Origin: Amphiscolops sp. MND2022
Taxonomy: Eukaryota
Length of the DNA: 64,000 nt
Direction: 5' to 3'
Assembly: GCA_964187785.1 (NCBI GenBank)
Contig: OZ076409.1
Span: 57,972,001-58,036,000, forward strand
Below the pieces are notes generated by a model that saw only the letters and a list, made by a program, of their open reading frames with translations, did no database searches and was not told the origin of the DNA. Position 1 is the stretch's first letter. Each line of letters begins with the position of its first letter. Positions 26,664-49,055 of this stretch are shown piece by piece. The position numbers were made by a program, and so were the translations under genes.

Positions 26664-27347
26664 GCGCCTTTTCCTTTAAAGGAAAAAAGCCCGAATATTT
26701 CAGTCACTATTTTTTTTCGTCAGACAGCAGAATGTATGCGTAGTGAACACGTTTTTTACAGAACTACTAAACTACTGGACCGGCAAGCGGAAACGCATCT
26801 AAGGTAGTGCAAAGGGTCCCTCCTTTCGTGTGCTCAATTTTTAACGTAAGATACAAAAGCGGACAGGATTATAGGACCCTTTTTCAATTTTTTTCGGCAC
26901 TGTTCGACTTTTATTTGAAATTTTTTTGTCTCCAAAGGGTCCCCCCTTCAAATTTTGTGATATTGTGCAACAAACTGGACTTTCAAAAGCCCAAAACGTC
27001 CCCTTTTTTACAATTTTTGAAACATTGCGCTTTTTGAGCCTTTAGATGTTTCCGTCTTGTTCTGATAAATGTGAGACAAGTTTTCGATTAAATATATTAG
27101 AATTCAAACAAAACAAAAACACGGCGCTGTTCGACTTTTATTTGAAATTTATTTTGTCTCCAAAGAGTCCCCCCTTCCAATTTTTTGATATTGTGCAACA
27201 AACTGGACTTTCAAAAGCCCAAAACGTCCCCTTTTTACAATTTTTAAAACATTGCGCTTTTTGAGCCTTTAGATGTTCCCGTCTTGTTCTGATAAATGTG
27301 AGACAAGTTTTCGATTAAATATGTTAGAATTCAAACAAAACAAAAAC
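26664..27347 (+). mobile_element. Helentron/DINE-like non-autonomous repeat with an about 226-bp tandem duplication of its 3' end plus flank
   Basis: Similar to the reverse complement of 48458-49055 (AGGGTCCC blocks, AGATGTTCCCGTCT hairpin-like end). About 26895-27120 is repeated at 27121-27347. Confidence 0.5.
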
Positions 27348-28365: not shown

Positions 28366-31300
28366 CTAGCTGCAAATCACACTACCGTTCATGTCGTTTT
28401 TGTGTAGCTCCTTGTTTGCCTTTTTGGCGTCCTCAATAATACAGTCTATCTCCGTATCTACTATGTGTTCCGTCGTTATGGCTAGTGGGTCCATACTGTC
28501 TTGGCTTTGGTCCGGTTGCTGTTGTATGGGTGAGTCTCCTGATGAACCGACGCTTTGTCTGTTTCGGATTACCTTCCGCCGCCCTCTTCCGAATACCCCG
28601 CTCTTTTTCTGTGGCTGGTCCATTGTTGTTGGTGTTCTGCCAGTTGTGTTTCTGGAGTCCGGTTGTTGCTGTGTCGACTTCTGGTCTCTGGAGCCGCTGA
28701 CCGATTCCGGGTATTTGCAAAACTCCATGGATTTGGTGAATCCGCCGTTTGGTCCTCGGGGCCCAGTTCCTCTGTTGCTCGGTTCTTGGATTTATTCAAA
28801 TGGGTTTACTTTTGTGTTTTTAATGTAGAGCTCTATTTTCAGAGGTTATGAATGAATGTTTGGTGCCTGATGTCGCTATTTGTGGCCTATTGGATGATGC
28901 ACTATCAAACTAAGGTTTCGTTATATTTTTTCCCAAGGATTGTAAATACATAGTTACTAACTCCATTTGTCACTTTCTTCTATTTCATGGGTAGCTGTTC
29001 AGAAGCTGGGTTCGGTAGCTGCGTTGAATGAGTATACCTGTAGGGTATCTTGTTTTACCAAAATAGAGTTTTTGTTACCTCTCAGTTTATCAAGACTTAA
29101 CATGTTGCTAATCTCGAAGTTCGATTCACGGCCGAAATGCATTTCCAAAGCTAATTTTTGAGCCACGTATGACGCGTTTTCGATATTACGTCGAGGGCTA
29201 TGTCTAAGGCTTAACTTGGATTTTCCCCGGCTTGATGATTGTCAATAATGTTTAATTTAGTGCTCTTACTCCACCTTCGATCAATCCCGTGGGAATATGT
29301 ATATACGGATTTTCGTATAGGAGACTGACATGGCGGTTCTTGCGAAACTCCCGGAGCGTTCTACCCGTAAAGGTGGTGGTTTTCTCCGTTCAAATTGCTT
29401 TTGAGATGCCTTTCAAGTTTATGTACTGTTCTAAAAATCTGACACCCGTTTTCCGTCTGTTGTTCTACAGAAACTTGGCGCCGGCCTTACTATTTGAATT
29501 TATAGGAAGTAAAAAATAAAATCTTCGGCCCTTTTCAAAGATTGAACCGATGAAAGTTCGGTTTACTCAGTGCCGGTAGTTGATTTTCGCTGTTTTAGGT
29601 ATGTTCGGTGTAACATCAAGAGAAATATCTGGCCACCAAAGACGTTTTGTTCTTCCTGCAGGTAATGCACTGCTGGTACTCCTAATACCGATTCATTGTA
29701 TCCACCGTCCATTGTTCTTGTCTTCTCGTCTGCGGTTGGAAACCCTCCACTTGTTGTTGATTTTCTCTGCGTCTAGATTTCCTATAGCTTGTTGGAGCTG
29801 TTCCTCAATTATCCATCTCTTGTTTCTGAGGATCTTTGGCTCATGGTGTTTTTCCATCGACAACTGAATTCACGGTAATTACCGTGTTTTACAATATCGC
29901 GCCACCTTCCGAACAGATTCCTTGTTTCAGCGGACGTGTCCGCTATTTCGAGGTTGTTTGTTGTGGCATCCGTTTCAATTTTATTGTTGGATTTTGCGCG
30001 ACTGTTTCGTGTAACAATAAGGCAATCAAAAGCTGTTCGTTCACAGGTTTTGGTTTGTTGGTTGTTTTGTGTGATGACGTGTTGGATGTGCCTTGCTGTG
30101 ATTGGTTCAAATGGTTGCCAAGGCAACCATCTTTGGTTACGAATTTGTAATGCAGTTTGATAGTGTTTATCACGTACTCTTTTTCGTATACGTTATCCGT
30201 TAGCCGTGCTGTGGACGGAAATCTGCTGAGAAGATTCGTCAGCGCTAAGTGTTTACCGGAAAGTGTTAATTGAAAAGTTTTCTAATCGGTCAAGCCACCT
30301 CGTTAGGCGTGCGCTGTAAGTTTTCATTGATCAGTTACGTTTAATTAATGGTTATAATGCTTGGTGGTCTGTGAGCAACTTCATCGTTTTACCGTAATTA
30401 TAGAGACGGAAATGTTCCAGTTTCCAAACAACTGCTAGCAAGTCTCATTCGTTGATTGCATAATTCTTTTCCGTGTCAGAAAAGAGTCGAATGGCGAGTC
30501 CAATCGGTTTTTATCCACCGTACGGTTGTTTTTGCCACAGTGCGGCGCCCAATACGTTCGTACTGGCGTTCGTTGCTATTACGTTTGGGTAGTTTGAGTT
30601 ATTTTGTGCCAGACACGGTGAAGCCGTGATTATTTGTTTCAAATTATTAATTGCTTTGGTGTGTTTTTCGAACAATTCCAAGCACTGTCTTTCTTGAGTA
30701 GTTGTCTCAAGATATTTGTTCGAACTGAAAAGTTTTCAATGTATTTCGACAGGAATTGGATTGCGCTTAGGATCGATTTTAATTCCCTTTCATTTTCCGG
30801 TTTTTTCAGTGCCTTTATAGCAATTATTTTGTCTTGTAACGGTCTGATACCATTTTGGTTCATTTTATGTCCGATACATTCGACTTCTGATTTTAATATT
30901 TCTGATCCCCTTTTGCTCAGTCCGTTGTTTTCCAGTTTTGGTATTACGTCCATTAGTTCATCCATATGTTTTTGTTTTGAGCCTTTTGTTACCACTATGA
31001 TATCGTCTAACCAGTTCGGAAGTTTGTTTTCCAGTGTCTGGTCAATTTTTTCTTGGAATCTGGTTGTTATGTCGGCTAGTCCCTAATTCCCTTTTAAAAA
31101 TCGATATGATCCAGTGAAATTTCCTCCTGTAACTGCAGAATTGCAGAGTTCAATTGCTTTTTTTCAGAGCTGTAGCTATCCATTTGCGTAGTCTAGGTCA
31201 AAACTCAATATCCAGAATCCAGATTTCGTCCGCCGGTCCGTCCGCTATTTTTCTGGATATCTTTCACTTCAATTCTTCCATGTTAGACATTTGTGCCTTA

Positions 31301-32464
31301 CTTTTCAGCGTAAATTCCTTCTGTTCTTGTCAGTCCAAGTCAATTTTTACTGACTTGTCCTCTTTAAGTGACCACTGCGGAGCTGGCGAAGCCTTTTTGT
31401 TGTTGTTTTCTACCGTCTAGAGCAACGTTTACTGTTGTTTTGACCTGGCGATTTATACTGTTGTCATTCACGTCCCGGTAATTTGTCGTTACCGGATTTA
31501 TTACAGTTGAGCTATTGAGTTTTGATTTTGGAACGAGAGTCACTGGTGAGCCCGTGTCTATTATGAATTTGATTAGTCTGGTTTTGACCGCTAACGTCGC
31601 TGTATAGAACGGCGGACCGTTTTGCTTTGTTTGCACCCAGTGAATGGATCTTCTGGTGTATTGAATGTATTTTGTCCGGTGTCCAGTCATCTCCTTCCGC
31701 ACGGTATGTTTCTTCTTCCGCTACGAGATTTATTTTCCGTGAACAGCGGCAACCTTTAGCATAAAGTTCGATTTTACCGCACTTTACACAATTCTTTCTT
31801 CTTGCGGGGCACTCATGTTGTTTGGACCAGTTACGGTCTCCGCATCTATTGCAGTCCATTTTTTTGGACTTTATGATCCTGTCTATATATTTTTTAGTTG
31901 GCTTAATTTTCTCTTCTCAACGTGTCGGACTTTCTTCCCCTCTTCAGTTTCTGGTGAGTCGTTTAATTTCTCATATCTGTGTTCATGTATGTCTTCAATT
32001 AATGCTTCGATCGCCAGATCGCTTTTGCGTGTTTTTTTTTTCAATTCCAAGTCTCTCGTGGATTTTTTTATGAGTGATAAAAGTTTCAATGCCAGCAGTT
32101 TGGCAGTTATGACATTTTAAAAAATCGCATTTTTGCCAACTGTTAGTTTTCTTTTGCAGACGTCTGCTGCTGATTCTCGGTTTTCTCTCTTGAGATCGAA
32201 AAAGTTGTCTCGGCTGTGTTGTACGTTTCTCTCTGGTTTGTAGTGCAGTCTAATTAAAGTGTACCGCTTGTACAAAGGTGGGGAGGTAGGTTCTCTTTCC
32301 CTTACTGTTTCAGTCATCTCCATTAGTGCATTTTGTCTTTTTGGTTATCGCAAATTATCCTTGATTTCGGATTCTAGCTGCTTGTGGTATTGTTGTTTAT
32401 TATAGCTGCTCGCGATATTTCCTTCGAAATTACAATTAATGAGATGTTGATTTTTTTCGTCATC
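28366..32464 (-). mobile_element. Decayed Ty3/gypsy element D (gag-PR-RT-RH-IN remnants), interrupted by element C
   Basis: Fragments CNRCG...CVKCGK, FIIDTGSPV, WLDDIIV, ELKSILSAIQF and WWP; many stops and frameshifts. Confidence 0.85.
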
Positions 32465-34358
32465 TGTGTTGACCGTGATTTAACCGTAAATCATTCGGTT
32501 CAACCGTTCCGGGTCTAAAATATGTATTCTCCAAGTCTTCATCATCGGGATCGTGGTGTGCGTTGTAGGACGGTTTTTCTGCTAGAGTGTCTATCTTAGA
32601 GGCTAGATTCTCTATCATTTTTAAAATCTCACGTTGTCCGATTTCCGTGTCTTTAATTCTTTTGCTGACGGACTTTTCTATTTTTTCTGATAACTCGTTA
32701 AAATCCTTGTCAGACAAGCAAGGGGTATTCTCAGTCCTCATGCTGGAAGACTCAGGTTCGTCTACTGAATTCACTGGGGAATCTCGCCTAGCTTTCCTTT
32801 TCGAGCTTCTCTCGGGCATCTTGTTCAAGTTTAAATTCTCAATTTTCTTTAGAAGGAATCTAAGTAGAATCTTGAGCAGAGAAATTTGAAGTTTTGAAAC
32901 TTTCAATTATTTTCAACAAAAGACAATTGCTTGCGATAAACAACAAAATTTTAACTAAATATGGCCTCTTGGTCCCATCATATTTATACCTTCCGATCGA
33001 GGAAGCAAGGAAAAGACACGCACATACTTCACATTTCGTTCAGCCCGGCGTCCATCCGAGGCAGGGAAAACGGAAATTCAGTTCCGCTTAGTCGAACTCA
33101 GGCTTTCAGTTTGTTCATGCTTCCCGGGGAAAGCAAGCGTCCACTTCCGGCCTGAGTTGCGACTTCGCTTTCCTTCCTCTCCAATCTCCCGCCTCTTCGA
33201 GACGCCGAACTGAACAACTAGCAAAAACACACGCTGTGACTCATCAAACGAAGTTAACAAACTGCACTAAATTTGGGAAGAAACGATGACAGTCAAATTC
33301 CTTTTACAGATATTCTCTAATTAAAATAAATTAGCAACGAAATGATAGAAAATTAAATGGAAAAAGTATGATGAACTGCAAAAGGGAGAGTAGAATCTTT
33401 TCTACGGTGTATTTGGTGATGTTTTAAATAAAACGGCAAAGCCTGGTCCCAGGCCATGGTCCTGGACGGACAAATTGGTTCAACAAAATACAGTGATTAT
33501 AAACAGTGTATAGCATCAGAGACATTATTTTATGGAATAATAAATGCAATTAAACGGTAACATGTTTAGGAAATGGTATATGCATGCAATTAACCCTTGG
33601 TTTGCATTTTGACATTGAGCCTTTGGCTCAGGCCACGGTTCAGGCTTATTTACTGATTAGACGCCATTTACATGTAAAAGTACATTATATGTAATATTCC
33701 AATCAACAGAATTATTTAGGATCATCAGTGATGGCTATTAGAGTTATTTCGAAACAAAGTTACATGTTAGCATCAACACTTTCTAATTTTGCGGACAGTT
33801 CGCTGTATTTTCATTCTCAGGCCGCGTCTCAGGCCGCGGTCCCAAATATTGCAATGAATAGGCGCGGGAATCTCAATTATTGGTATATATACAAAACTGC
33901 ACTGTCGATGAAGCACTGCATTAGCCATTAGTTTGTATGCATGTATTTACTGTAAGGGAATGCTTGTGTATTGGTTTACAAATCTCAGGCCGCCTGCCAG
34001 GCCACCGCTTTAGTGAGCGCATTTGAGGCCGGCCGCCAGGCCGCAGTTCCGTTCAAGAATTAATTGACTGCTTGTCAGGTTGAGTGTTTTACGTAGTATT
34101 GATATTAGCACTATGTTATTAACATTATTAACTGCACTTTAGCTCCGTTATTTGTAAGTACGTATTTAAATAAGTGTACATTAATATAGTAATATTAATA
34201 TATATATTTATTTATTTAATTGTTTCAAATTTAGCGCCTCTGTTTCTAATTGTCCCTTTGTTGTTTCTTTCTTGTTCTTTCCTCTCTTTTCCCAATTTAT
34301 TCTTTGAAGACTGGGTTACACATGTTGCAATACTCACAGCTTATGCGGGGCTGTGACA
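32465..34358 (-). repeat. 3' LTR of C (contains the duplicated gag 5' ORF, ATG 32819)
   Basis: Direct repeat of 46104-47997; all ORF-track translations inside are identical. Confidence 0.97.
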
Positions 34359-34857
34359 GTCCTCGGCTTCTTTGCCCAGTTCCCTCTGGAAGAAGAAATT
34401 GGGAAATGGATCGGATCGGGGTGTCGAACAAGGTAGGTAAGTCATCTCTCATTGAGTCATAAGAGCGCCAAGTGGAAATGCTGGACCAACTGCTGCCTGA
34501 CCAGTATCCTTCGGAGCTGCTGTCGGTCTCGCTGACCGGGCTTATAAATGCGTCGTCAGGTATGACTGGGCTGATAAATGCGTCGTCAGGTATGACCGGG
34601 TTTTCAGTCGTGAAGCGGCGGATAACTTTGTTTTCTGCTTCTTCGTTTATCATCTGTGGTAATTGGCTGTCGTGTACCAAGACGATGTGCTGGTCTTCGG
34701 TTTTAATAATTTCGTAAATAGTAGGACAGCGTGCAGGATTATTTAACTGATAATTAGGCGGCGGTGTACCGGGCCTTTGGTTGGGTTGCTGCTGTTCATC
34801 TCGGTCAAGAATAAAAACATTTTCGTTTAGTTGGCTGCTTGAGTTTGCGTGATTCAT
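34297..34857 (-). CDS. Unknown 186-aa sense-strand accessory ORF of C, ending inside the 3' LTR
   Basis: ATG ORF at the same position as B's 315-aa ORF; TATATAA on the - strand at about 34981-34987; internal 30-bp duplication (PVIPDDAFIS x2). Confidence 0.62.
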   Translation of the reverse strand: MNHANSSSQLNENVFILDRDEQQQPNQRPGTPPPNYQLNNPARCPTIYEIIKTEDQHIVLVHDSQLPQMINEEAENKVIRRFTTENPVIPDDAFISPVIPDDAFISPVSETDSSSEGYWSGSSWSSISTWRSYDSMRDDLPTLFDTPIRSISQFLLPEGTGQRSRGLSQPRISCEYCNMCNPVFKE

Positions 34858-35075
34858 TGTAGTGTCAACTAAGCGTCAGTCAATTTTGTAGTACAACTGA
34901 TTTGCTCCGCTTGGAAGATTCGTTCACACGGTTTGTGTTAACTCCATGAATTGTTCAGCTGGCAGACTGAACAAATCTCCTTATATAGTAGATAACTTTT
35001 GATATTAGTAATTCCTTGTTTTACGCCACATCTTCTTTGGTTTTATGCTGATTGCTATTTTTAGATTGTTTGATA

Positions 35076-38000
35076 ATGAGTTCAACTGAAGAGGATAATG
35101 TCCTTCAGCGACAAAGTCGAGGAGCTGGTTTTATGGAGAGTGAGTTGGAGTCTGAGTCTGTCGGTGGGTCTATCATTCGAGGTGAAGAAGAAGTTACTGG
35201 TAGTGGTGGTCGGGATGAGAATGAGGAGGCTGGTGTCAGTGCTGCTGGTTCGAAAATACGTGGGTTCGGCGAGAAAGATGTGGATGATGACGAGGCCGAG
35301 TGTCCCGAGGAGACTGGATCTGTTCATTCGGATAGCAGTGATGCCCGTCATGAACTTGACTATCTTGCCAATAAGAAAGGTAAACTTTTCTAGAAATTGA
35401 TAGGTGGCCAGCCTTTTCTAGGTGTCTGCGAACGCGTTCTTTTTGATCTCTACTTTGTATTTAGTGTCTGATGATGAAACTGATGACGATTATCGCCCTT
35501 CCGGTAGTACCCAATCTCAGGGCAAGAAGAAGCGTCGTGCCAGTCGTGTGCCTTCTGTCGGGAGTGTGGGGCCTTCCAGACGGGTAAAGTTGGCTGATAT
35601 AATCTCTGGGTCTATGCCTGTGCCGCCTACACTGCGTGACAGTTCTGGGAACGAGTATGAGCCGCCTGTCATCAGCGCATCCAAGACTCTTGAAAGTAGG
35701 TATTCTTTCTTCTTTCTTTGTATGGCGTTAGGAATTTTATGGGTGTATGGTTTTGTGCTTTCGTCCATATTATTCCTCTGGTTGTGCACTAATTGTGATG
35801 TTATAGTCGTTGATCCTGGGTCTCAGGCGGTACCGGCGACATCGGAGGAGAGTGATGTCTTTGTCTGTGATCCGTCGCAGGAAACCCCGGCTGCAGAGAG
35901 TGAGGCTGTGTCCGTGTTGCCTGATTCTGGGGCTCGTTTTGAGAGGAGACAGCACTATCGTCCAGCAGTTGGCCTGGAGCCGTCCACCATCCACAATGAA
36001 TGGGAAAAAGGTATGTGTATTTGGTTTGTGTTCTTCCATACTCTGATACTGGTGGTTTTATTGTTGGATGTTATCTGTCATTCGCCTGTGAGGAGGGGGG
36101 TTTCTTCATTTGTTAGTTGTAAGGCAAGGTTTTGTCTTCTGTTTAGCTGGATTAGAGTCTGTGCCTTCTGGGTCTCCAGTCATTATGTCTGCCGCACAGT
36201 GTGTGATGTTCGCTCGATGTGCTGCCCGGAGCGAACGGAATGAAGCCATGAAGGAGACGAAGACTTTGGCTAAACGTAAGTTGTTGTCTGCAACTCTTTT
36301 TATCTGCTGTTCTATGAACTGTTTTGTCTGTATTTTCCGTTTGGTCTGTCCTTTTACTGCTGTTTGTTTTCGGGTTTGATTTGCAGTTTTGATTTCCAGT
36401 TGTTGTGGAGAGTGTTGTGTTTTAGAATTCGAGGAGTTGTCCCGGCTGTTGAAGTCAAAAGGCATTGATGCCAATGATCCCAGTCGTGTGTTAGATCCCA
36501 TTGAAGTGCGGAAGGAAAAACTGTTGGCCCGCGACGAGGAAAAGGCGAAACGGCAGTCTGAGCGTCATGTCTTGACAAAGGCTATGTGTCATCATGCCCT
36601 CCCGCGTTTGTTCGTGAGTCGCCGCAGTGACAAGAATCCCAACGGGTTCAACTGTGCCATCTGCCGCAAGGATGTCTCCTTTCTGTCCCGGGGTCCTCGG
36701 GGTATTTGGCGGCATTTCAAATGCAAGGGGCATTACTTGAAAGACCGAAGATATCGTTACGATCATGAGGACGTTATCTTCACAGAAGATTTTGACGCGA
36801 TTCCCGTGGGTGAGATATCTGCAGAGTTGCGGGAAGAAATTGAGAAGACGCCCCCTGTTACGCTCGGCAAAATGAACCCTTTCCTTGAGGACGAGGTGGA
36901 TGCACTGGTTGGCGTCCCGTCCAATGTGCCACCTTCGACGCTCGTGGGTTGTCTTCTGGAGCTTCTTAGGAGTGGCGGTTCGCAAGTGTTCTTACGCCGC
37001 TTGTGGAACCAGTTTAGAACCACTCTGCCGGTCGAGAGCCCGTACGCTTCTGTTACCTGGAGCAAAACTGAGACTCTTGTGGTGTTGGTGCAGACACTGT
37101 ACCCACGTGTGCTGAAACGTGTGAGGACTTGGCTGGGAGACAGTCCCTTTAGCCTGATACTACAGCAGTCCCGTTCCAGCGTGAGATGTTTTGTTCGGTG
37201 TTGCACAGATGACTCGACCCGTGAGATTTGTATCGCTGATGAAGATCAGGCTGCTGTTTCCTGTGAATCCGAAATTCAATGCTTGTCTCGTGCCTTATCG
37301 TTGGTGTCAACTCGTCGTGGACCCGTCTCTGTTGAGAATTGTTCTCCAGTTCTTTTCAACGCCTATGTCGATTGGTGTCGAGCAGTCGGGCGGCCTGTGC
37401 CTCTAGTTGCTGTGTCTTTTGATGGTGATCTGTTGCGGCGTATCGTGAACGATGCTGGTCTGTCGTGTGTGGGATCAGTGGATGCCTTCGCTGTGGTTGA
37501 GTATCTTGTGCAGCGTTTGAAGAGGGTCCGCCATCAGGCCTGGCTCCTGAATCTGCCCCAATTCCGTCTCTGCCTGGATAGTGGTGAAGTGTCATTTGCT
37601 GTTCTCTGTGATGTTCTGGAGGAGTTGTTGTCAAATTGGTCGGATATAAAGATTTGTCTTGCTAACGAAATGCTGCTGATGAAGAAGTCCATTAATGTGG
37701 TGGATCTTGATTCTTTGCTGTGTTCGGACCGATTGGGACTGCCGCGTCTCGCCTTGTTGCATGTGGTATTGCTGTGTTTCCGGACTAACTGTGCGAAGCT
37801 ATTTGATCCATCAGTTAAGGATTATGCCTGCAGGAACTTCGTTGACTTCTGTTTTTTCTACTGGAGTCTGCTGAGTAAGGTCAAGAAGGTGGGTCAGTTG
37901 CCTTCAATTGATTGTTGGTCTGAGTATATCGACCAGCCCTTAACAAATTGGCCCAACGTTGCTGCTGGTGAGTGTCTCCAAGGTGAGCCTAGTATCCTAA

Positions 38001-38842
38001 AGGCTCTGCGTGGGTTTGACGTTACGCCTCGACGAGCTTTCTTGAAGGAGTGTCAGACTTTCTTGCTGGAGTTGCTCAAACAGCTCAGGGCATCCAGTTA
38101 CGCCAGTTCTCGGGTCGCCCGCTCTCTCAGTTGCCTGAGTGTGGACATGTTGCTCGGCGGAGATGCAGGTTACGTTGTGGAGTTGTTTCAGGACTTGGTC
38201 GCCTGTTTCCAGGAAGCTGGTTATTTGGGTAGTCTGGATCGAGAAGCTGCTGTAAACGAGTTCAAGTCATTGGTGGTGGATCTTCGGCAGTTATCGACCG
38301 ATGCCTCTCAGATCAAGGACGTGTTCGTTTATCTGGAGGATAATACCAGTTATCAGTGCCGCGCCCATGTGAAACAAGTAGTTCGTCTTGTGCGTGTTAT
38401 TGTTGGGCCTGCTCCTGCTGCCATGCCTGTTGTGGACATCTCTATGAGTGGAACAAATCTGCCGCCTAGTGTTATCCGTTCTGGGCTGAGTGCTGTTCAG
38501 TCATTTGTTTTGCATCCAAAGTTTGTCGTTGGTGAGTTGCTGACCGTAGGGTGTCTGGAGGAGTTAAAAGTCAACCTGCCTGTTGGGCATCGGTTCCTGG
38601 CACGGACTGAGTTTGATCCTTGGACTGATGTATGCCGCCATTCTCGTGCTGGGATTTTTAATGACTTGCTCCAGTGTTATACGGCGTATTATACAGGGCA
38701 GGTTGAGGAGTGGAGGGCCCGTGTGACAACTGTTGGTGCTTCTACCAGTGCTGTTCCTGGGGGCAGTCAAAGTGGAGCTGGTTCTTCGTCAAAAGGACCG
38801 AAGAGTGGTACCCGGGCAACGCGGTCTGGGAAGTCGACTTGA
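35076..38842 (+). CDS. Antisense five-exon accessory gene of C (predicted 1,094 aa): acidic N-terminus, C2H2/BED-like zinc finger, degenerate hAT-transposase-like body
   Basis: Exons 35076-35379, 35465-35695, 35807-36010, 36147-36275 and 36426-38842 are joined by four phase-1 GT-AG introns that keep frame (3,285 nt). FNCAIC...WRHFKCKGH finger; homologous to B's antisense gene. Confidence 0.82.
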
Positions 38843-39199
38843 AGACATGATGATTTGAACTTTTGCTGATGGATTGATTGACTCCTTGTATATAGACTGT
38901 TTATTTATTTGTTGCTTGTATTAGCGGTTCCGCAAGTCGGTTCCTTTGTAGTGAATCAAAAATACACAGAATGATATGCTCTGGTATTATAGGGCAAAGA
39001 AAAAAAAAATCAGAAAAAACAGAGAGGAGAAGTTGAGGCAGCTCAGTGCTTTCCTGGGCTAATTAATTCAGTATTTAGCCTCCGAATTGTTTTCATCCAA
39101 GTCGTAGGGTATAGTAGTTTGAGTGAAAGCCATTGTGAAATGAAGAGATTTTGAGGTTCAGTTTGTAGGGATGCTGTCTAGGCCAGTGCCTGGGGCTAA

Positions 39200-42100
39200 T
39201 TAATTTTCTGATCTCGGGCTGCCGTCTGGGCCGAGGTCTGCTAAAACTTGAAATTCTGGGTCGTCGTCCAGGCTACCGGTTGATTGTGCCGGGCTTGTTG
39301 AGTTAGCTGTTAAGGCATTGTAATAGGCGTAATCGGGCTTCCAATTTGACGTCGGGTTTCTTCGAAGATTGTATTGGGATTTTCGGGGGGATTTAGGTGT
39401 ATCTGTGTTTTCTTCGGGTATATCATCTAGGTCGACTGTTGGGTCCTGTGTCTGATCACTTGGGTAGGTTGGGGTAGGTTCGGGTTCGTATGCCAGGTTA
39501 GGGCTTGGGGGTTCAGGGTGGGTGGGGGCATTGTCTGTTACGGGGGTTGGCAGTGTGATCTCGGGTTCGGGCGATTGTTTATTTTCGGGTTGGGGTGGGC
39601 ATTCGTTGTATAGCTCTTCCCACGCCATTGCAAAGAGGTCGTCGTGTTGAATTGTTACTTCAGTATCCTGCTGGTAATCTTTGGGTGGAACTGTAATGTC
39701 AGGCAGTTTTTGGCTGCTTGCAAAGGGGCGGAGTCTGATTCTGTGCAGGATCTGGGTGAAATTGGTTTGTAGCTTGCGTATAAGGTAATTATTGTTAGGC
39801 AGAGTTTTGACCACGATATATGGTCCCGTCCAAAGGTATTCTCTAAACGGCAGTTTCGTCGCTTGGCTATGCGCCTTTGGATGTAAAGCATAGCAGTAGT
39901 CGTTTACTACCAAGGGGTGAGCTGATGCTTTCCGGTCATAATAGCGTTTATGTCGGACGTAAGCTTGCATCAGGGCTTGTTGACTGTTGTTGAGGATTTG
40001 TTGTGTTTGCTTCAACACTCCCTCGGCTATTTCGTGGTTGATTGTGGAGGACGCCTGTGGCTTGATGCCGTATTTGAGGTCAAGTACATTGTATGGTACT
40101 CTTCCATGGAAAACTCGGCTGGGTTCACAGCCCAGTGACGTGTGGTATGAGGTATTGTAATTTAATACCGCCATTGGTAAAAATTGGTGCCACATCGTTC
40201 GCCTCTCTCCTGTCATGATCTTTAGGCTTTCTTTGAGGGAGGCGTGCGTCCTTTCCAGGATGCCAATTGTCTGGGCATGTTTGGTAGTGGCATGTTTCAG
40301 TTGGATTCCAAGGACAGCTGTTGTTTGTTGCATTGCCTCCGATATGAACTGGGATCCTTTGTCTGTTATTATCGTTGTGGGAAGGTAACAGTGTCTTGTT
40401 ATGATATCTGTGAGGACCCGCGTGACAGTCTTGGTATCGACCCTGGCGACACTATAAGCGAAAAGGTATCGGGAGAATACATCCATCGCTGTAATGACTG
40501 CGGTATATCCTCCTGATGGGTCGTCGAACGGGACGATGTCCATTTGTAGCGCGTCTTCTGGGCCCAGTGCTACTTTAGACATGTCGATCAGTGGAGGTGT
40601 GATGTTGGCATTTGGGGTCCTTTTCGTCTGCGCACATTCTGGACACTGTGTAATGTGCGTGGCTATGCGGGCGGCTAGTCCTGGGAAGTAATATTTTTCG
40701 CGGCACTGCTGGATGGTTTTGGCTATGCCTGGGTGTTTTCCGAATTTGCCATGGTGGTGTTGTATGAATTCATCGACCAATTGTTGGGGGAGCAATACTT
40801 GCAGATATTTGACTTTGCCTGTGTCGCCAAAGTATTGTCTGTACAGGAGCCCATCCTTGATGATGATGCGGTCGTCCTGAGTGAGGTACTTGGCTGCTCT
40901 GGGGTCATCATTCAGTAGTTGGGTGTCATATGGTTCTTTTAGGATTTTCAGTTTGAGGTTTCTAAGAACGGGGTCCTGGTCTTGGTGTGGTCTCAAACTG
41001 CGTGGGAAACTAGTGTCATTGTGTAGTAGACGCCGCTGTTCCTGTTCTGGGTCTTGGATGTTGTTACAGACCAGGGGTAGGTTCTCAGGTTGAGAGATGG
41101 TTTGGTCAGTTTCGTTCATTGGATCAGTGCTTTTTTGATATGGTGAATAGATCTGTTTGCGGGCTTGTTGTTTCCGCTCCCAGATGTCCTCTTCGGTCTC
41201 TGAGTCGTCCTCTGGTAAAAAATAGAATTGATCTTCCTCATGGATGTCGGAAGATTGGATGTTCACCTGGATCGGTGTAGTTTGTATATCTTCTCTGATT
41301 TGGAGAAGGACTTTTTCTTTGGGGTTGATGTCGAGACGGGAGAGGAAATCAGCTGCAGTATTCATTCTCCCTGGCACATGGGCGATCTTGAAGTGAAATT
41401 GTAATACGAAATCGCAGGCATTCCAGAGGGAGGGAGGAATCATCTTGGTTTGAAAAAACCTGGTGACTGATTTATTGTCAGTTAAGACAATAGTTGGTTT
41501 GGAGGAACCCCACAAGATGTGGCTGTATTCCATAAATGCAAAATAGATGGCCAAGAATTCTTTGGCGTAGATCGACATTTTCAGCTGGGACGGTGAAAAG
41601 GTCTTTGATCCAAATGCCACTGGAGCGTAAGTCTTCTTGGTGGAGGTGATCTTTTGTTCGGGGTCCTCTTCTGTCATCAAGGCATATCCGGCGTTCTTGA
41701 AGCTTGCGTCTGTCATTAGCACGTACTGCCGGTTTGGCAGTGGCTGTTTGAGCCAAAGGTCGCATGCGTTGTGCAGTGACTTGTTGATGGCTTCAAAGTT
41801 GGAAATGAGGTCTTGGTCGATCTTTACCGGTTTGTCTGATTTGATCAGTTCATGGAACGGGGCGATTTTCTCTGACAATCGGGGAATGTAATTTCTGTAG
41901 TAGTTTACAAACCCGATGTATCTTTGAAGTCCCTTCTTCGTTCGGGGGAATTTGATGGTTTGGAGGTGTTTCTGGATCTTGTGGGTCTGGGGTGCCACTC
42001 CTGCTGGGGAAATCGTTTGCCCAAGGAATTCGACTTCCTTGGCGCCAAACTGACATTTGGCCATGGTGAGCCGGAGTCCTGCAGCGCGGATGCATTGGAA

Positions 42101-44980
42101 GACCTCTCTCAAGTTGTTCTTCAACTCCTCGGGAGTGTTGGTGGCGATTCCAATGTCATCTACGTACTGGGCGCATTTGTCCGCCTTTATGGCTTTGTCA
42201 AGATATTCCCTCATGAAACTGGAGAAGGACGAGAGTGAGCGGCTCAGGCCCTGGGCTAGCCTGAGGTACGCAAATGTCCTGCTGGCAAAGTTGAAGGCTA
42301 GGAGTTGCACTGATTTCTGGTCTGCCATTTGCAGCACGTGGTAAGCTTGTGAACAATCAAGCTTACAGAACAACTTTTTGCCAGCGAGGTGTTGCGCTGC
42401 GTCGGTCAATGTGCTCACGGGATGATTGTTGTTAATGTAGTCATCGGAGATTAGGTTGTTGATCTTCCTGAGGTCAACCAGGAGACGCAGGCGGCCATTT
42501 GGTTTCCGTTGGGCGAAGATGGGACTAGCATACTTGCTGAACGGGAGGGTGGTGATGATCCCGAAGTAATGCATTAGTGCCAACTCGACTGTCAGATCCT
42601 CTTTCAGGTTAATGGGGCACGGCAAGCTCTGTGAATAGACGGGGTCGTCAGTTTTTGGGGTGAGCTTGATTTTAAAGTCGTGGTTGATCCCGATGTCTAG
42701 TCGGTGTCTCGCGAAGATGTCATTGAACTCTATCAGGATTTCCTCAATGTCTTTCTGGTCATTTTCTGTTAGCTGGGAATCATCCCATTTAAAGTTTTTG
42801 AGGAATGCCTCTCGGTCTTCAGTATTGTTATTGGGGTCCAGTTTCTGGATCTCTTCCAGTTCCTTGATTTCCCTCAGTATTCTGCTTTGAATCGGCGTGT
42901 GGGTACTAGGGTCGCCAGGATTGTCCGGTGTAGGAAACCAAAAGTTTTGGTTGTTTGATGGTTTTTCTGAGGTTTTCAGAAGCTCATTGATGTACACTAG
43001 CGCTTCTTCGGAGTCGTCTTCGGTCAGCACTTTAAGTGCTGCTGTGTTCAGTGGTCTGAGTTCTTTGGCCTCTTCCGGGGACAGGATTTTGAACTCGGCG
43101 ATTGTGGTGTTGCGTTTAATAGTGAAAGGTGTAGGGGTGGTGTTGGTGACTCTGATGTCGATTTTCCTGTTGGAAGCTGTTGAGATGGAGCTGGCTACTA
43201 CTAGGGGGTCACCACTACAATGGTTGGTAGCTGGGTTTATGACACCGGTTGTGTCAACGTTTGATGGTGTGTCTGTGGAGCCCGTGATTGTCTGTGTCGT
43301 TTCCGGGGGAATCGTGAGTGGGTTCTTGATCTGTACTTTATACAATTTCCTGTTACGTGTATATTCATCAGTTTCGATTGAATATGTGAGGTGGGGGAAG
43401 TGTAACAGGCCTTGGCTCACGTCCAGGATTGCGCTATTGTTTTTGAGGAATGTAAGGCCAAGTATCGGGCCAGTCAGGCGTTTGGCTACGATAAAGGTTT
43501 CTTTGAAGTTCCAGTCTCCGATCTCGAATTGGAGGATGATTGTTTTGGTAGGTGTCTCAATGTCGCCGTTTGCGACTTGAAGTTTGAAGGGGGGAGGTTC
43601 CAATTCTTTGACTACATCTTTGGGGGACATTTGGATGATTTTGTTGTAATCTGTTTCAGAGATGCAGTTTACGAGAGCGCCAGAATCGATGAGGGCGTCC
43701 AGGGTCAAGTCCTGGAAATCCATGGGTGCGAAGAGCATTTTCTTCTTCTTTTTAAGTGATACCGCTGAGAAGATCGGTATGCACTCTTCTTTGGTGATGG
43801 GGTCTCTCGTGAGGAATTCCGCAATCTGGGCCAGGGGGTAGGACTGGGGTTCGTCCTGGGATGGTGAGTCGTCTGCTACACCTGGGGGGAATCCAGATTG
43901 CGTGTTAGTTGCGGCAGAGGTGAGGGGTCGAGGGTCCTCGACTTCGTTTTCGGTCTGCCTGCTTGAGAGAGAGAGGTAGACGTTGGTTTCTCTGGTTGGG
44001 TTTTCGTTATTCCTCGGATATTCTGCAGTCTGCTGGGGGAGGTAGGACCTGGGAGTGTCCTGTTGTGGTGCGCCGTTTGCGGCACCTGAGGGCGATCCAG
44101 ACTGCATGTTGGTTGCGTCAGCCATGATGTGTCGACCAAAGTCGGTGTCGTCTTCTAGCTGGCTATTGAGGATGGGGTGTGAGACCTGGGTCTCGCTGAG
44201 AGTTGGTGGCTCCAAGAGTAGGGATCTCTTGATGCGTTTTGTTGTGGGTTTGGAGGTGATTGTCTCCGGATTGTGTGTATTTTGGGCTAGGTCCACGGCT
44301 TCGTTCGTGGTCCTGTGGGCGATGTCTTTGTGTTGGTGGCTATCTGGTGCCACGTCCATTGTTGGGGATCGGATGATGCCGGCTCTAATAGGGTTTGTTG
44401 ACTGTTCCCTTGATGGAGAATGGGGAGCAGTGGCATGTGATCCTTGGTTTTTGAGTATGGGTCTGAGATTGTCTTGTGGGAGATCAACTATGATCTTTGT
44501 CACATGTTCCGCGTCCTGGTCGTAATTGGGGATGGGTTGGACGGTTTTGGACCTGTGGCGTGGCTCGGTGGAAATGTTCATCCCTGTTGTTCTGATATAC
44601 TCTTCAAATGGCGTGCATTCCTGGTGTTTGAAGGTTAGTGTTGTTTTGTCGTATAGTTGAGGGTTATAGTAGGGGTCGCAGTTGAAGTCCGAGTCGTGGA
44701 AGTATGTTTCAGGGGTAGTGCTTTCTGGTAGGGGTCGTTTGGGAGTATTGTACTCAGTCGGGTTGTCGAGGTACCACTGGGGGTAGTCCTTCTTTGTGAT
44801 GTGTCGACGGTTGTATTTATGGAGCTTATGGATCTGCCATCTTCGCTGCCAGTCGAGAGATGGTTCTTCATTTCGCTCAGTGTTTCCTTCTTTGTCGTAT
44901 GAATTTGGGGGTTCAGATGTTGTGTACTGTCGCATTTCGACAGTCTCCCCAAATCGAAGATGTGGCGATTCTAGTTTTTT
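39200..44980 (-). CDS. pol: Pol of element C (PR, dUTPase-like linker, RT, RNase H, integrase), -1 frameshift from gag
   Basis: 1,911-aa ORF with LIDSGA, QYVDD, MTDAS, HPG...CPEC, ITDKGSQF, WTGPY; frame open up to the A AAA AAC heptamer at 44974-44980. Confidence 0.97.
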   Translation of the reverse strand, partial: KKLESPHLRFGETVEMRQYTTSEPPNSYDKEGNTERNEEPSLDWQRRWQIHKLHKYNRRHITKKDYPQWYLDNPTEYNTPKRPLPESTTPETYFHDSDFNCDPYYNPQLYDKTTLTFKHQECTPFEEYIRTTGMNISTEPRHRSKTVQPIPNYDQDAEHVTKIIVDLPQDNLRPILKNQGSHATAPHSPSREQSTNPIRAGIIRSPTMDVAPDSHQHKDIAHRTTNEAVDLAQNTHNPETITSKPTTKRIKRSLLLEPPTLSETQVSHPILNSQLEDDTDFGRHIMADATNMQSGSPSGAANGAPQQDTPRSYLPQQTAEYPRNNENPTRETNVYLSLSSRQTENEVEDPRPLTSAATNTQSGFPPGVADDSPSQDEPQSYPLAQIAEFLTRDPITKEECIPIFSAVSLKKKKKMLFAPMDFQDLTLDALIDSGALVNCISETDYNKIIQMSPKDVVKELEPPPFKLQVANGDIETPTKTIILQFEIGDWNFKETFIVAKRLTGPILGLTFLKNNSAILDVSQGLLHFPHLTYSIETDEYTRNRKLYKVQIKNPLTIPPETTQTITGSTDTPSNVDTTGVINPATNHCSGDPLVVASSISTASNRKIDIRVTNTTPTPFTIKRNTTIAEFKILSPEEAKELRPLNTAALKVLTEDDSEEALVYINELLKTSEKPSNNQNFWFPTPDNPGDPSTHTPIQSRILREIKELEEIQKLDPNNNTEDREAFLKNFKWDDSQLTENDQKDIEEILIEFNDIFARHRLDIGINHDFKIKLTPKTDDPVYSQSLPCPINLKEDLTVELALMHYFGIITTLPFSKYASPIFAQRKPNGRLRLLVDLRKINNLISDDYINNNHPVSTLTDAAQHLAGKKLFCKLDCSQAYHVLQMADQKSVQLLAFNFASRTFAYLRLAQGLSRSLSSFSSFMREYLDKAIKADKCAQYVDDIGIATNTPEELKNNLREVFQCIRAAGLRLTMAKCQFGAKEVEFLGQTISPAGVAPQTHKIQKHLQTIKFPRTKKGLQRYIGFVNYYRNYIPRLSEKIAPFHELIKSDKPVKIDQDLISNFEAINKSLHNACDLWLKQPLPNRQYVLMTDASFKNAGYALMTEEDPEQKITSTKKTYAPVAFGSKTFSPSQLKMSIYAKEFLAIYFAFMEYSHILWGSSKPTIVLTDNKSVTRFFQTKMIPPSLWNACDFVLQFHFKIAHVPGRMNTAADFLSRLDINPKEKVLLQIREDIQTTPIQVNIQSSDIHEEDQFYFLPEDDSETEEDIWERKQQARKQIYSPYQKSTDPMNETDQTISQPENLPLVCNNIQDPEQEQRRLLHNDTSFPRSLRPHQDQDPVLRNLKLKILKEPYDTQLLNDDPRAAKYLTQDDRIIIKDGLLYRQYFGDTGKVKYLQVLLPQQLVDEFIQHHHGKFGKHPGIAKTIQQCREKYYFPGLAARIATHITQCPECAQTKRTPNANITPPLIDMSKVALGPEDALQMDIVPFDDPSGGYTAVITAMDVFSRYLFAYSVARVDTKTVTRVLTDIITRHCYLPTTIITDKGSQFISEAMQQTTAVLGIQLKHATTKHAQTIGILERTHASLKESLKIMTGERRTMWHQFLPMAVLNYNTSYHTSLGCEPSRVFHGRVPYNVLDLKYGIKPQASSTINHEIAEGVLKQTQQILNNSQQALMQAYVRHKRYYDRKASAHPLVVNDYCYALHPKAHSQATKLPFREYLWTGPYIVVKTLPNNNYLIRKLQTNFTQILHRIRLRPFASSQKLPDITVPPKDYQQDTEVTIQHDDLFAMAWEELYNECPPQPENKQSPEPEITLPTPVTDNAPTHPEPPSPNLAYEPEPTPTYPSDQTQDPTVDLDDIPEENTDTPKSPRKSQYNLRRNPTSNWKPDYAYYNALTANSTSPAQSTGSLDDDPEFQVLADLGPDGSPRSEN

Positions 44981-46458
44981 GAGTGGCTGAGGTTCTGACT
45001 TGAGTTTTGGGGTTGAGTAGTCTGCGGGAGCATGGGTGGGTAGCCCGTTTGGCTATGTGTTTGGTTTTCGTATGTTTGCTGGTGGGTTGATGGGTTGTCC
45101 GAGGGGTATTGACCTTGGGCATTTTGTGGCAACGGGATGTTATTCGGGGGAGTTGTCTTAGGTGTCTTCCACCATTGAGGTCTATTTGCCCAGTTGGCTC
45201 CGGAATAACACTCTTGGGTCGTATGGCTTTTCTTGCCACAGGTTTCACATGGGTTTGTGATTTTGGTTGGTACCCGGTTGCCTCGGTTACGGGCTTCCCG
45301 AGCTGTTTTCCGGCAGTTCTTTATTACATGGCCTGGGTGGCCACATCCAAAGCACGGGCCTGCCGGTTTGGGTGGATTGGCGGTTTGTTGTGGGATGTCT
45401 TGTACATCGATTTGGTGTACTCCCGTTATGTTTGTTTCGCTTGGGGCTAGGAGTCCGTTTAACTCCATCTCGCGTTCCAGGTGTTGGACCATGAGGTCGT
45501 ATGACTCTGTCTCTAGTCTTGCCTGGTTGAGGACTCGTTTTAAATGGGCTGGCATTTTTGCATAGAATGAGGTTTCTATGAACTTTGGGGCGTCGTCGCC
45601 ATATGCCTCCTGTGCCAATTTTTGATACTGCTCCAAGAAATCTTGGAAGGTTTGGCGAGTAGGGTCAAAGTAAAGTTGTTCCCACTTACATCTTGCTGTA
45701 GCTATCGATTGTGGGCGTACATACCGTCTGCGAAAGGTGGCGATGATGTCATCTAGGCTGGTGCGGTTTGCATCGGTCATGTTGCGATAGGTTTGGAGTG
45801 CATCGCCTCTCAGGAGGGAGTGGAAATAGTGGATTTGCTCCTCTTCTGAGATGTTTGGGTAGACTTTGAGGCTCGTCATAAACAGATCTTCGAAATGCTC
45901 GAACTTGTCGTTGCGGCCATCGAACGTTGGCATAGTCGTTGAGAGTGCCTTTGGTAGTCTGGGTAATCCCACGTTCTGTTGTGTGGCGTTTTTTAAGGAT
46001 TCGAGTAGTTTGTCTACGATATCGTCTGGATATCTCATGTTGGGCGGCGGTAGACTTGATGACCGGGCGGGTATGTCCTGGGTTGTGGTAACTCCTGTCA
46101 CCATGTGTTGACCGTGATTTAACCGTAAATCATTCGGTTCAACCGTTCCGGGTCTAAAATATGTATTCTCCAAGTCTTCATCATCGGGATCGTGGTGTGC
46201 GTTGTAGGACGGTTTTTCTGCTAGAGTGTCTATCTTAGAGGCTAGATTCTCTATCATTTTTAAAATCTCACGTTGTCCGATTTCCGTGTCTTTAATTCTT
46301 TTGCTGACGGACTTTTCTATTTTTTCTGATAACTCGTTAAAATCCTTGTCAGACAAGCAAGGGGTATTCTCAGTCCTCATGCTGGAAGACTCAGGTTCGT
46401 CTACTGAATTCACTGGGGAATCTCGCCTAGCTTTCCTTTTCGAGCTTCTCTCGGGCAT
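44971..46458 (-). CDS. gag: Gag of element C (first ATG 46458, 118 codons inside the LTR)
   Basis: FEHFEDLF, HLEREMELNGL, knuckles CFGCGHPGHVIKNC and CETCGKKSHTTQEC. Confidence 0.95.
   Translation of the reverse strand: MPERSSKRKARRDSPVNSVDEPESSSMRTENTPCLSDKDFNELSEKIEKSVSKRIKDTEIGQREILKMIENLASKIDTLAEKPSYNAHHDPDDEDLENTYFRPGTVEPNDLRLNHGQHMVTGVTTTQDIPARSSSLPPPNMRYPDDIVDKLLESLKNATQQNVGLPRLPKALSTTMPTFDGRNDKFEHFEDLFMTSLKVYPNISEEEQIHYFHSLLRGDALQTYRNMTDANRTSLDDIIATFRRRYVRPQSIATARCKWEQLYFDPTRQTFQDFLEQYQKLAQEAYGDDAPKFIETSFYAKMPAHLKRVLNQARLETESYDLMVQHLEREMELNGLLAPSETNITGVHQIDVQDIPQQTANPPKPAGPCFGCGHPGHVIKNCRKTAREARNRGNRVPTKITNPCETCGKKSHTTQECYSGANWANRPQWWKTPKTTPPNNIPLPQNAQGQYPSDNPSTHQQTYENQTHSQTGYPPMLPQTTQPQNSSQNLSHSKN
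46091..46103 (-). promoter_or_regulatory. Primer-binding site of C (TGGTGACAGGAGT)
   Basis: Directly follows the LTR-terminal CA. Confidence 0.88.
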
Positions 46459-47997
46459 CTTGTTCAAGTTTAAATTCTCAATTTTCTTTAGAAGGAATCT
46501 AAGTAGAATCTTGAGCAGAGAAATTTGAAGTTTTGAAACTTTCAATTATTTTCAACAAAAGACAATTGCTTGCGATAAACAACAAAATTTTAACTAAATA
46601 TGGCCTCTTGGTCCCATCATATTTATACCTTCCGATCGAGGAAGCAAGGAAAAGACACGCACATACTTCACATTTCGTTCAGCCCGGCGTCCATCCGAGG
46701 CAGGGAAAACGGAAATTCAGTTCCGCTTAGTCGAACTCAGGCTTTCAGTTTGTTCATGCTTCCCGGGGAAAGCAAGCGTCCACTTCCGGCCTGAGTTGCG
46801 ACTTCGCTTTCCTTCCTCTCCAATCTCCCGCCTCTTCGAGACGCCGAACTGAACAACTAGCAAAAACACACGCTGTGACTCATCAAACGAAGTTAACAAA
46901 CTGCACTAAATTTGGGAAGAAACGATGACAGTCAAATTCCTTTTACAGATATTCTCTAATTAAAATAAATTAGCAACGAAATGATAGAAAATTAAATGGA
47001 AAAAGTATGATGAACTGCAAAAGGGAGAGTAGAATCTTTTCTACGGTGTATTTGGTGATGTTTTAAATAAAACGGCAAAGCCTGGTCCCAGGCCATGGTC
47101 CTGGACGGACAAATTGGTTCAACAAAATACAGTGATTATAAACAGTGTATAGCATCAGAGACATTATTTTATGGAATAATAAATGCAATTAAACGGTAAC
47201 ATGTTTAGGAAATGGTATATGCATGCAATTAACCCTTGGTTTGCATTTTGACATTGAGCCTTTGGCTCAGGCCACGGTTCAGGCTTATTTACTGATTAGA
47301 CGCCATTTACATGTAAAAGTACATTATATGTAATATTCCAATCAACAGAATTATTTAGGATCATCAGTGATGGCTATTAGAGTTATTTCGAAACAAAGTT
47401 ACATGTTAGCATCAACACTTTCTAATTTTGCGGACAGTTCGCTGTATTTTCATTCTCAGGCCGCGTCTCAGGCCGCGGTCCCAAATATTGCAATGAATAG
47501 GCGCGGGAATCTCAATTATTGGTATATATACAAAACTGCACTGTCGATGAAGCACTGCATTAGCCATTAGTTTGTATGCATGTATTTACTGTAAGGGAAT
47601 GCTTGTGTATTGGTTTACAAATCTCAGGCCGCCTGCCAGGCCACCGCTTTAGTGAGCGCATTTGAGGCCGGCCGCCAGGCCGCAGTTCCGTTCAAGAATT
47701 AATTGACTGCTTGTCAGGTTGAGTGTTTTACGTAGTATTGATATTAGCACTATGTTATTAACATTATTAACTGCACTTTAGCTCCGTTATTTGTAAGTAC
47801 GTATTTAAATAAGTGTACATTAATATAGTAATATTAATATATATATTTATTTATTTAATTGTTTCAAATTTAGCGCCTCTGTTTCTAATTGTCCCTTTGT
47901 TGTTTCTTTCTTGTTCTTTCCTCTCTTTTCCCAATTTATTCTTTGAAGACTGGGTTACACATGTTGCAATACTCACAGCTTATGCGGGGCTGTGACA
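46104..47997 (-). repeat. 5' LTR of C
   Basis: TGTCACAG...CAACACA on the - strand; TSD adjacent. Confidence 0.97.
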
Positions 47998-48002
47998 TCA
48001 TC

Positions 48003-48457: not shown

Positions 48458-49055
48458 TATACGGGAACGTCTAAAGTCGGCGCTATATCTAAGGCTCATA
48501 AAGCGCAAAACATTTTTTTTGGAAAAAAACTTCGAAATTTTTGATAAAATTTTTCTTTCGGAAAATGTCGCACAGTGACGAAAATGTAAAATAGGGGGAC
48601 CCTTTTTGATTTCCAAACATGCATTCTGTTGCAAAATAACAAAAAACTCAAAGGGGGGACCCTTTGGGGTCATTAAAATATTTTCGATAAAAAATTGCAC
48701 AGTGCCGAAAAAAATCAAAAGGGGGACCCTTTAGCCTCGGCCGGTTTTGTAGGTTACAATAAAAAAGTAAAAAATGAAAGGGGGGACCCTTTGGAGACAA
48801 AAAAATTTTCGAAAAAAAGTCGCACAGTGCCGAAAAAAATCCGAAGGGGGGACCCTTTAGACACGTCCGGTTTTGTATGTTTCCTTGAAAAAGTAAAAAA
48901 TGAAAGGTGGGACCCTATGGACCTTTTGCCTCGGCGGGACCTGGCCTTAGGTGGTTTCAGGATCAGTTTCAGGATGTGAGGATTGTAGTCTGAAGAAAAA
49001 AAAAGGTCACTGCTATAGTCGGGCATTTTCCCTTAAAAGGCTAAAGCGCCGACTA
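48458..49055 (-). mobile_element. Helentron/DINE-1-like non-autonomous element
   Basis: Subterminal inverted repeats AGTCGGCGCT...AGCGCCGACT, internal GGGGACCC repeats, T-rich flank, related copy at 26664. Confidence 0.55.

Follow-up and report, generated by a model that had tools for sequence, protein, structure and literature searches.

Relation to described systems

Plant Retand/Tat elements carry an antisense open reading frame (ORF) between pol and the 3' long terminal repeat (LTR), with tandem arrays in the same place, and a role in DNA binding and in regulation has been proposed for it (PMC11963269). Here we describe a gene in the same position in an animal, carried by Ty3/gypsy elements, three of which (A, B and C) lie in or reach into a 64-kb window of the genome of Amphiscolops sp. 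MND2022 (contig OZ076409.1; G000:C1:57972001-58036000 of the 1.07-Gb assembly that we searched; by window we mean this whole analysed stretch, whose own numbering is used below). Seven Wnt matches in the assembly, all above the Pfam cut-off and six of them on large contigs, mark the host as an animal. The gene, read here mainly in element C, very probably encodes a hAT-derived protein with a decayed catalytic site, which may act as a DNA-binding regulator of its own element family. Retand/Tat, in contrast, is plant-only, and its TRP28 (PF04195) and PMD domains are unmatched by Pfam in the C antisense protein, while the C gene appears to comprise a whole hAT body, with at least four predicted introns. 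PMD is common to gypsy and MULE elements (PMC5418596), and the word 'intron' is absent from the main text of the Retand paper (PMC11963269).

In plant DNA transposons, family-specific motifs in tandem repeats of introns and termini are described for VANC of the VANDAL elements (PMC5735166), and TnpA of Spm is described as having arisen from a transposase, with transposases activating their cognate copies, in a paper whose main text contains neither 'LTR' nor 'gypsy' (bioRxiv 10.64898/2026.08.24.746577). Motifs of lineage B, found in the LTRs and in an intron array, match the VANC target pattern; they are weak or absent in C, A and the diverged locus L048. VANC and TnpA counter DNA methylation in plants.

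HBZ of HTLV-1 and APH-2 of HTLV-2 are small bZIP-type proteins of unrelated origin; our gene is more likely to be transcribed from an internal promoter than from the 3' LTR. Both proteins are described as antisense nuclear regulators encoded near the 3' LTR (PMC11963269). Bdelloid LTR elements, which are gypsy-like, have captured enzyme-derived ORF3s (DEDDy, GDSL) that are exchanged between retroelements; these depart in no clear way from neutrality within the genome, and 'transposase' is absent from the main text of the paper (PMC5408684). The antisense gene, by contrast, is under strong purifying selection. Host-domesticated hATs (ZBED5, FAM200, GTF2IRD2, EPM2AIP1; DAYSLEEPER) are reportedly transposases kept without mobility, and they are the nearest named clusters to our protein by language-model features (0.89-0.92). 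Here, however, the domesticator would be another mobile element, and the gene is multicopy, exists in several versions and has no Pfam match to their families. A review of large transposons contains no whole-word 'hAT' or 'antisense' (PMC6431247), and the titles and abstract beginnings that we searched, a scope outside which most subscription journals and repeat-database reports fall, yielded no LTR element with a hAT-derived antisense gene. Accessory antisense genes are already known; unusual here are the source, the size, the introns, the animal host and the allelic swapping.

Structure and conservation of the antisense gene

Element C (32465-47997, minus strand) is delimited by a pair of LTRs and a target-site duplication (TSD), and the antisense gene sits between its pol and its 3' LTR on the strand opposite to pol. 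An earlier, sequence-only reading had described five exons, four phase-1 GT-AG introns and one 1,094-residue frame carrying a CxxC...H...H finger; recomputation reproduced the gene structure exactly (3,285 nt, with 1,094 codons that are open up to the terminal stop), and the finger is present at 36653-36733. All exons are on the plus strand: exon 1 (35076-35379) is acidic and of low complexity, exon 2 (35465-35695) contains a KKKRR run resembling a nuclear-localisation signal, and exons 3 (35807-36010) and 4 (36147-36275) lead to the large exon 5 (36426-38842), which holds 804 full codons. The four predicted introns between them, at 35380-35464 (85 nt), 35696-35806 (111 nt), 36011-36146 (136 nt) and 36276-36425 (150 nt), are all GT-AG and all phase 1, and have a GC content of 0.36-0.40 and a T content of 0.41-0.51, compared with GC 0.49-0.57 in the exons.

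From 12,239 candidates across the genome, exon 5 gave 55 scored matches, which fall into 29 at 98-100% identity and 26 at 72-76%; a further subfamily near 49% identity accounts for 53 matches and the B type for 122 rows. In the best 20 of the 55 exon-5 loci, which include the window itself (L001), all eight splice dinucleotides are intact in every copy and the 1,094-codon frame is open in 18. The four donor positions are also kept in L046 and L047 (73-74% protein identity) and in L048 and L049 (46-49%). Global alignment of L046 and L047 gave overlapping identities for introns (0.62-0.86) and exons (0.62-0.73), and intron divergence was not used as evidence. Intron 1 is 82-86% identical in these two loci, above the exons, and contains palindromes such as TTCTAGAA; it is possibly a binding site or an RNA structure. 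At two places the antisense gene is part-duplicated in tandem, C11:32277029/32280262 (3.2 kb apart) and C2:51194782/51196938 (2.2 kb).

Codon-position identity of exon 5 between C and its relatives is 0.76/0.88/0.43 (L046) and 0.74/0.86/0.44 (L047), with pS saturated at 0.80 and 0.79 and pN at 0.155 and 0.173, respectively. The lowest pN (0.07-0.10) is found in the finger and the 120 residues that follow it, and the RNase H core, the insertion and the C-terminal part are also constrained. As dS is saturated in most other pairs, for which bootstrap intervals carry no meaning, dN/dS is reported for the B lineage and pol only; in the two unsaturated pairs out of four the B-lineage gene gave 0.127 (0.094-0.179) and 0.155. 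Among 19 young copies, variants present in at least two copies are 35 synonymous to 14 non-synonymous, and private ones 26 to 24. These values show purifying selection on the protein. That the gene is intact, predicted to be spliced and under purifying selection we regard as close to certain from these comparisons.

Predicted fold and origin

Exon 5, in order, encodes a finger, an RNase H-like core, a helical insertion, hAT-like C-terminal helices, extra helices and an S/K-rich tail. An AlphaFold2 model of exon 5 (pLDDT 73, alignment of 18 rows) shows the core at residues 241-330 (37148-37420, placed by secondary-structure order), where three strands come first and are followed by helix, strand and helix, with a long helical insertion. 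A Foldseek search with this model returned Hermes in the first 11 rows (E 2.7e-4 to 1.8e-3; next match 6e-2). VIA aligned 400 residues to Hermes at Z 13.0 and rmsd 4.9, with the next structure at 6.7, and in BFVD the sole match below 1e-3 was a hAT protein (E 1e-5). Language-model neighbours in the Atlas were hAT, FAM200 and ZBED5 clusters (0.90-0.93), and these look-alike results are counted as one source. An ordinary hAT of the same genome, taken as control, reached Z 25.1 against Hermes and 26 chains at Z of at least 8, mostly integrases and transposases, compared with one such chain for the antisense protein, which therefore would have a much-changed hAT body.

The likeness to Hermes and related hAT transposases (PDB 8edg, 4d1q, 2bw3) lies in the order of parts and the predicted fold: finger, long helix, RNase H-like core, insertion and C-terminal helices. 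The antisense protein is, however, only 9-10% identical to Hermes, does not keep the catalytic Asp, Asp and Glu nor CxxH and RW, and has about 290 extra acidic residues at the N-terminus and 100 extra at the C-terminus. Unlike hAT transposons, its gene is without terminal inverted repeats and an 8-bp TSD of its own and is carried by an LTR retrotransposon.

The finger, C-x2-C-x16-H-x5-H with C76, C79, H96 and H102 of exon 5, is in the BED position and keeps its CCHH residues, yet it gets no Pfam zf-BED score. All four residues are present in 18 of 18 close relatives, and in 17, 18, 18 and 17 of 18 distant ones, respectively. The C-terminal dimerisation family PF05699 gives no score for the antisense protein and scores in all five control hATs, while equivalent helices are present in the model (38333-38515). 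A search for PF14291 found no match either in the antisense protein or in the controls. Database searches returned 36 and 853 relatives (150 of the 853 listed), all without protein names where names could be shown; scans of JGI metagenomes and IMG/VR gave 108 and 175 pattern matches, none of which was confirmed. The donor hAT lineage was not found in sequence comparisons with the hATs of this genome. On the strength of the structure models, a hAT origin of the antisense protein is nevertheless highly probable: the suggestion made before any search is supported by predicted structure, with Hermes ranked first, and by language-model features, though not by sequence.

Loss of the active site

Catalytic sites were mapped by secondary-structure order against the control model, by the invariant columns of five control hATs and by alignment to Hermes. 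The controls (L050-L054) are five long hAT frames which keep Asp, Asp, Glu and RW, and in four of five also CxxH; two of them occur as equal-scoring copies. hATs are common in this genome, with at least 150 PF05699 matches.

The first Asp site is Q246 in C (37163-37165), and among 18 relatives it holds R in eight, Q in six, K in two, H in one and L in one, with Asp in none; the distant rows that have a residue here show Asp in 0 and Glu in 3 of 15. The second site, N304 (37337-37339), is Gly in 14, Asp in 3 and Asn in 1 of 18, and Gly in 15 of 18 in the distant set. The Glu site falls on V668, within the hAT C-terminal region, is acidic in 4 of 18, and the catalytic helix of the control model is coil here. 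CxxH is absent from the family, and the RW site is S389-F390 in C and P/S-F across the family; a conserved Trp follows 14 residues further on, which is also the spacing in Hermes. The invariant W372 was considered as the RW tryptophan and rejected, as spacing to the common NW motif points to F390. The loss thus extends beyond the replaced first Asp that had been noticed originally, to the second Asp, CxxH, RW and the Glu helix. From this mapping onto models we hold it very likely that the protein is catalytically dead; it has the build of a hAT transposase yet does not belong among the active ones.

Retention in three lineages

The antisense gene of B (13050-17037, minus strand, 5' end not fixed; this copy has a frameshift in the finger exon) is a real homologue of the C gene, with BLAST E 2.9e-6 for the finger exon and the other parts bridged via distant relatives. 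The motifs quoted for it earlier are present, but the proposed collinearity does not extend to exon structure, as four predicted introns of the B gene interrupt the stretch that corresponds to C exon 5. The gene of A lies just beyond the left window edge (L055 = G000:C1:57964501-57972000, 1744-4575, plus strand) and, as in B, has further introns within the exon-5 equivalent. Since the B and A genes are at the same site and on the same strand with other introns, introns have been acquired or dropped during the time that the gene has spent in the element.

Pol adjoins the gene in 20 of 20 close loci and in B, and lies next to it in convergent orientation in 4 of 4 diverged C-lineage loci, 6 of 6 diverged B-lineage loci and A, the loci having been chosen from gene matches. 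No free-standing gene copy was seen among the loci read, all of which were picked via such matches. The gene is not framed by an inverted repeat, since of 17 short pairs found none sits at both ends. Two trees of 13 rows each, one built from a 130-residue stretch of integrase and the other from the finger region, separate the B clade from C plus A (support 100/99), and five C-lineage rows group in both (96/93 and 98/97), with tips unresolved. Same position in three lineages and agreement of the trees at depth support that the gene has been kept by a gypsy clade. This bears out the retention proposed at the outset, purifying selection pointing the same way. Database relative P0026 had no match above 50% among the 52 scored in this genome, which suggests that it comes from another host species.

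Exchange of versions between backbones

L046 is 98.5% identical to C over the LTR and spacer and 95-100% over pol, but only about 70% over 35000-39000, where synonymous sites are saturated. Similarly, B, L056 and L057 have integrase segments that are 100% identical and fingers that are 72-81% identical, and L058 and L059 show 100% and 78%, respectively. Family A is abundant, all 150 listed integrases being 96-100% like that of A, and 39 of these 150 have a listed gene match 1.2-1.8 kb downstream on the other strand; as this overlap of coordinates compares 150 listed matches of each kind, it shows presence only. In the 38 pairs besides A itself, 12 genes are 80-98% like that of A and 26 only 46-49%, with integrases 97-99% like A's. 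The swapped segment has sharp edges. These comparisons show that near-identical backbones exchange very different versions of the gene, a point that the earlier reading had not noted.

Candidate promoter and repeated motifs

Conserved non-coding blocks precede the ATG of the C gene (34920-35032, plus strand) and include an 18-nt block that is invariant in five of five aligned elements; the blocks are common even to the 46-49% subfamilies. They are likely to form an internal and perhaps two-way promoter. Head to head with the antisense gene lies a small sense ORF (34297-34857, minus strand, 186 codons), which ends in the 3' LTR with a CxxC; it has matches of 39-85% identity in L047-L049, L062, L063 and L065, and no Pfam match.

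Inside a predicted intron of the B gene there is an array of ten 40-bp units (14860-15257) containing AAACAGCA and TATGCGG, as in the B LTRs. Each motif occurs eight times per LTR. The intron region has 8 and 12 copies, respectively, the 6-kb gag-pol stretch counted has 1 and 0, and neither is found in the large exons of B. AAACAGCA is present in 6-21 copies in all six diverged B-lineage loci.

Proposed mechanism and alternatives

What, then, could such a protein do for the element? We propose, with a probability of roughly 0.55 and by analogy with transposase-derived regulators of DNA transposons, that the dead hAT scaffold is a DNA-binding regulator of its own element family. An ancestor of the gypsy clade would have captured a hAT transposase gene, which was kept as an accessory gene after the catalytic site decayed. 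Transcription would start from the conserved blocks (34920-35032) and run against the direction of the genomic RNA. By the general replication of LTR elements, introns antisense to the genomic RNA face away from it, would escape the spliceosome there and so be unspliced before reverse transcription, which is how an LTR element could retain a gene with introns. The antisense transcript would be spliced and the protein would enter the nucleus via KKKRR, where it could bind short repeated motifs in the LTR or other non-coding DNA of the element through its CCHH finger and the DNA-holding hAT scaffold. The acidic N-terminal part may then raise or protect transcription of the family, as transposase-derived regulators do in DNA transposons. 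Template switching at the conserved flanks, between RNAs packaged together, would exchange the versions, and their diversity might be kept by hosts or rival families selecting against common versions. A further tentative suggestion, possible but one to which we give well under even odds, is that the gene serves the clade as a regulator module with many alleles and free exchange, in which every deep version reads its own repeated motif or host target.

A number of observations weigh against the proposed regulator and its origin. Pfam gave no family match on the antisense protein, a sequence and profile search of the PDB gave none, and HHalign against five Ac-like hATs of this genome returned a probability of 0.1 (from a shallow, 5-row profile). 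The Foldseek TM-scores are 0.27-0.35 by query length at rmsd 11-19, Z 13 is close to the caution level of VIA for helical models, and pLDDT in the finger region is near or under 55. The catalytic sites were placed by structure order and motif analogy and not by residue-level superposition, and Asp/Glu 670 is present in all 18 close rows and in 18 of 31 distant ones. Only lineage B gives a strong motif signal: the LTR of C has six copies of GCCTGAG against a resample maximum of 5, and its gene lacks an intron array, the region upstream of the L048 gene has no enriched 7-mer (4, maximum 4), and the gene region of A has no enriched motif. The LTRs of C and L046 are 98.5% alike, whereas their genes are 74% and their fingers 85% alike, so there is no visible covariation of motif with version. 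Outside the elements the observed/expected ratio of CpG is about 1.0; since CpG is not depleted, a DNA-demethylation route of the VANC kind is doubtful. The genome has five DNA-methylase matches, and any anti-silencing need not act through DNA methylation.

The common LTR of C and L046 with its different versions would also fit a protein that counters host silencing by binding a host protein or as a decoy, without acting on its own LTR, the swapping of versions then being a way to evade small RNAs or a host sensor. Versions indeed diverge far more than backbones, and the long acidic, disordered N-terminal part would suit such a role; the strongest conservation, however, is in the finger and the following region, and lineage B has motif arrays, so we consider this fairly unlikely. 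The protein could instead be an integration or particle co-factor that anchors the integrase complex or the ends of the cDNA on chromatin and guides the choice of insertion site. The gene adjoins pol at every locus examined, and the models suggest that a transposase scaffold able to hold DNA ends is kept, but a tight contact with integrase is hard to square with integrases 97-99% alike being paired with versions 46-49% alike, and this role seems unlikely.

A self-limiting or competitive factor, that is a repressor or incompatibility determinant that limits copy number or excludes other versions, would account for the coexistence of several deep versions on one backbone, as in allelic incompatibility systems, where several versions coexist. 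The antisense proteins of HTLV are regulators too (PMC11963269). The families are, however, very abundant and young, as seen from the integrases of family A and the identical LTRs of C, which makes such limitation quite improbable. That the protein still works as a nuclease or recombinase, through some unusual active site, is very doubtful: the RNase H-like fold is apparently kept in the model, residue 670 is acidic in all close relatives, and the second site has Asp in 3 of 18 and the first Glu in 3 of 15 distant rows, but no acidic triad is conserved across lineages and CxxH, RW and the Glu helix are absent. A nested hAT DNA transposon or neutral passenger is barely credible, for although hATs are common in this genome and the swapped segment is sharp-edged, no inverted repeat brackets the gene, its position is fixed on the same strand in three lineages, selection is strong despite the missing catalytic residues, and neither a free-standing copy among the loci read nor a sequence match to the genome's hATs was found.

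The carrier elements and their surroundings

The LTRs of C (3' LTR 32465-34358, with the six GCCTGAG copies; 5' LTR 46104-47997; both on the minus strand) are 1,894 nt each with no mismatches and TG...CA ends, and are flanked by the 5-bp TSD TCATC (32460-32464 and 47998-48002). Between them gag (44971-46545, minus strand, stop to stop) is followed by pol (39200-45052, minus strand), a single open frame of 1,950 codons ordered PR-RT-RH-IN by Pfam, which is the gypsy layout. Element B (4841 to about 21861, plus strand) has its 5' LTR at 4841-6712 (end approximate) and the other at 19990 to about 21861, and its gag-pol (6042-12757, plus strand) has two in-frame stops in pol in this copy. The gag-pol of A (2-3822, minus strand) is truncated by the left window edge. 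Identity to the pol of C is 49% for B and 48-55% for A. The gag frames of both C and B (6042-7775 in B) start inside the 5' LTR, so that each 3' LTR repeats the gag start. Two pol relatives of the clade, P0253 and P0258, have a dUTPase (PF00692); among the 120 relatives listed, none has a name.

Elsewhere in the genome, copies at G000:C10:2574276, 2587915 and 2601554 are spaced by 13,639 bp, exactly the LTR-to-LTR distance of C, and copies at C13:16095492, 16110653 and 16125814 by 15,161 bp; both series are tandem arrays of whole elements with shared LTRs. In the window, a fragment of a separate, ordinary hAT transposase (24956-25405, minus strand; zf-BED, E 3.7e-5) has no match to the antisense gene family, and decayed gag/pol-like pieces of another LTR element lie at 29800-31900 (minus strand; translations judged by eye). 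The flanks of C (26865-27347 and 48642-48921; 28383-28718 and 50200-50523) contain tandem units of 227 and 126 bp that are related in inverted orientation, and a direct repeat of 91-100% identity, about 21.8 kb apart.

Significance

Domestication of transposases is known on the part of hosts and of the DNA transposons that encode them. In the case described here the domesticator appears to be a class I element, which has apparently taken over an enzyme of class II and carried its gene, introns included, through reverse transcription. If the multi-allelic reading were true, backbones would trade versions by template switching while balancing selection keeps versions of less than 50% identity side by side, and the anti-silencing systems of plants would have a counterpart in an animal, carried by a retroelement, that may explain the mass expansion of the clade in this genome. 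Young and abundant families with interchangeable versions of the gene represent a natural experiment on the accessory genes of LTR elements and on transposon anti-silencing in animals.

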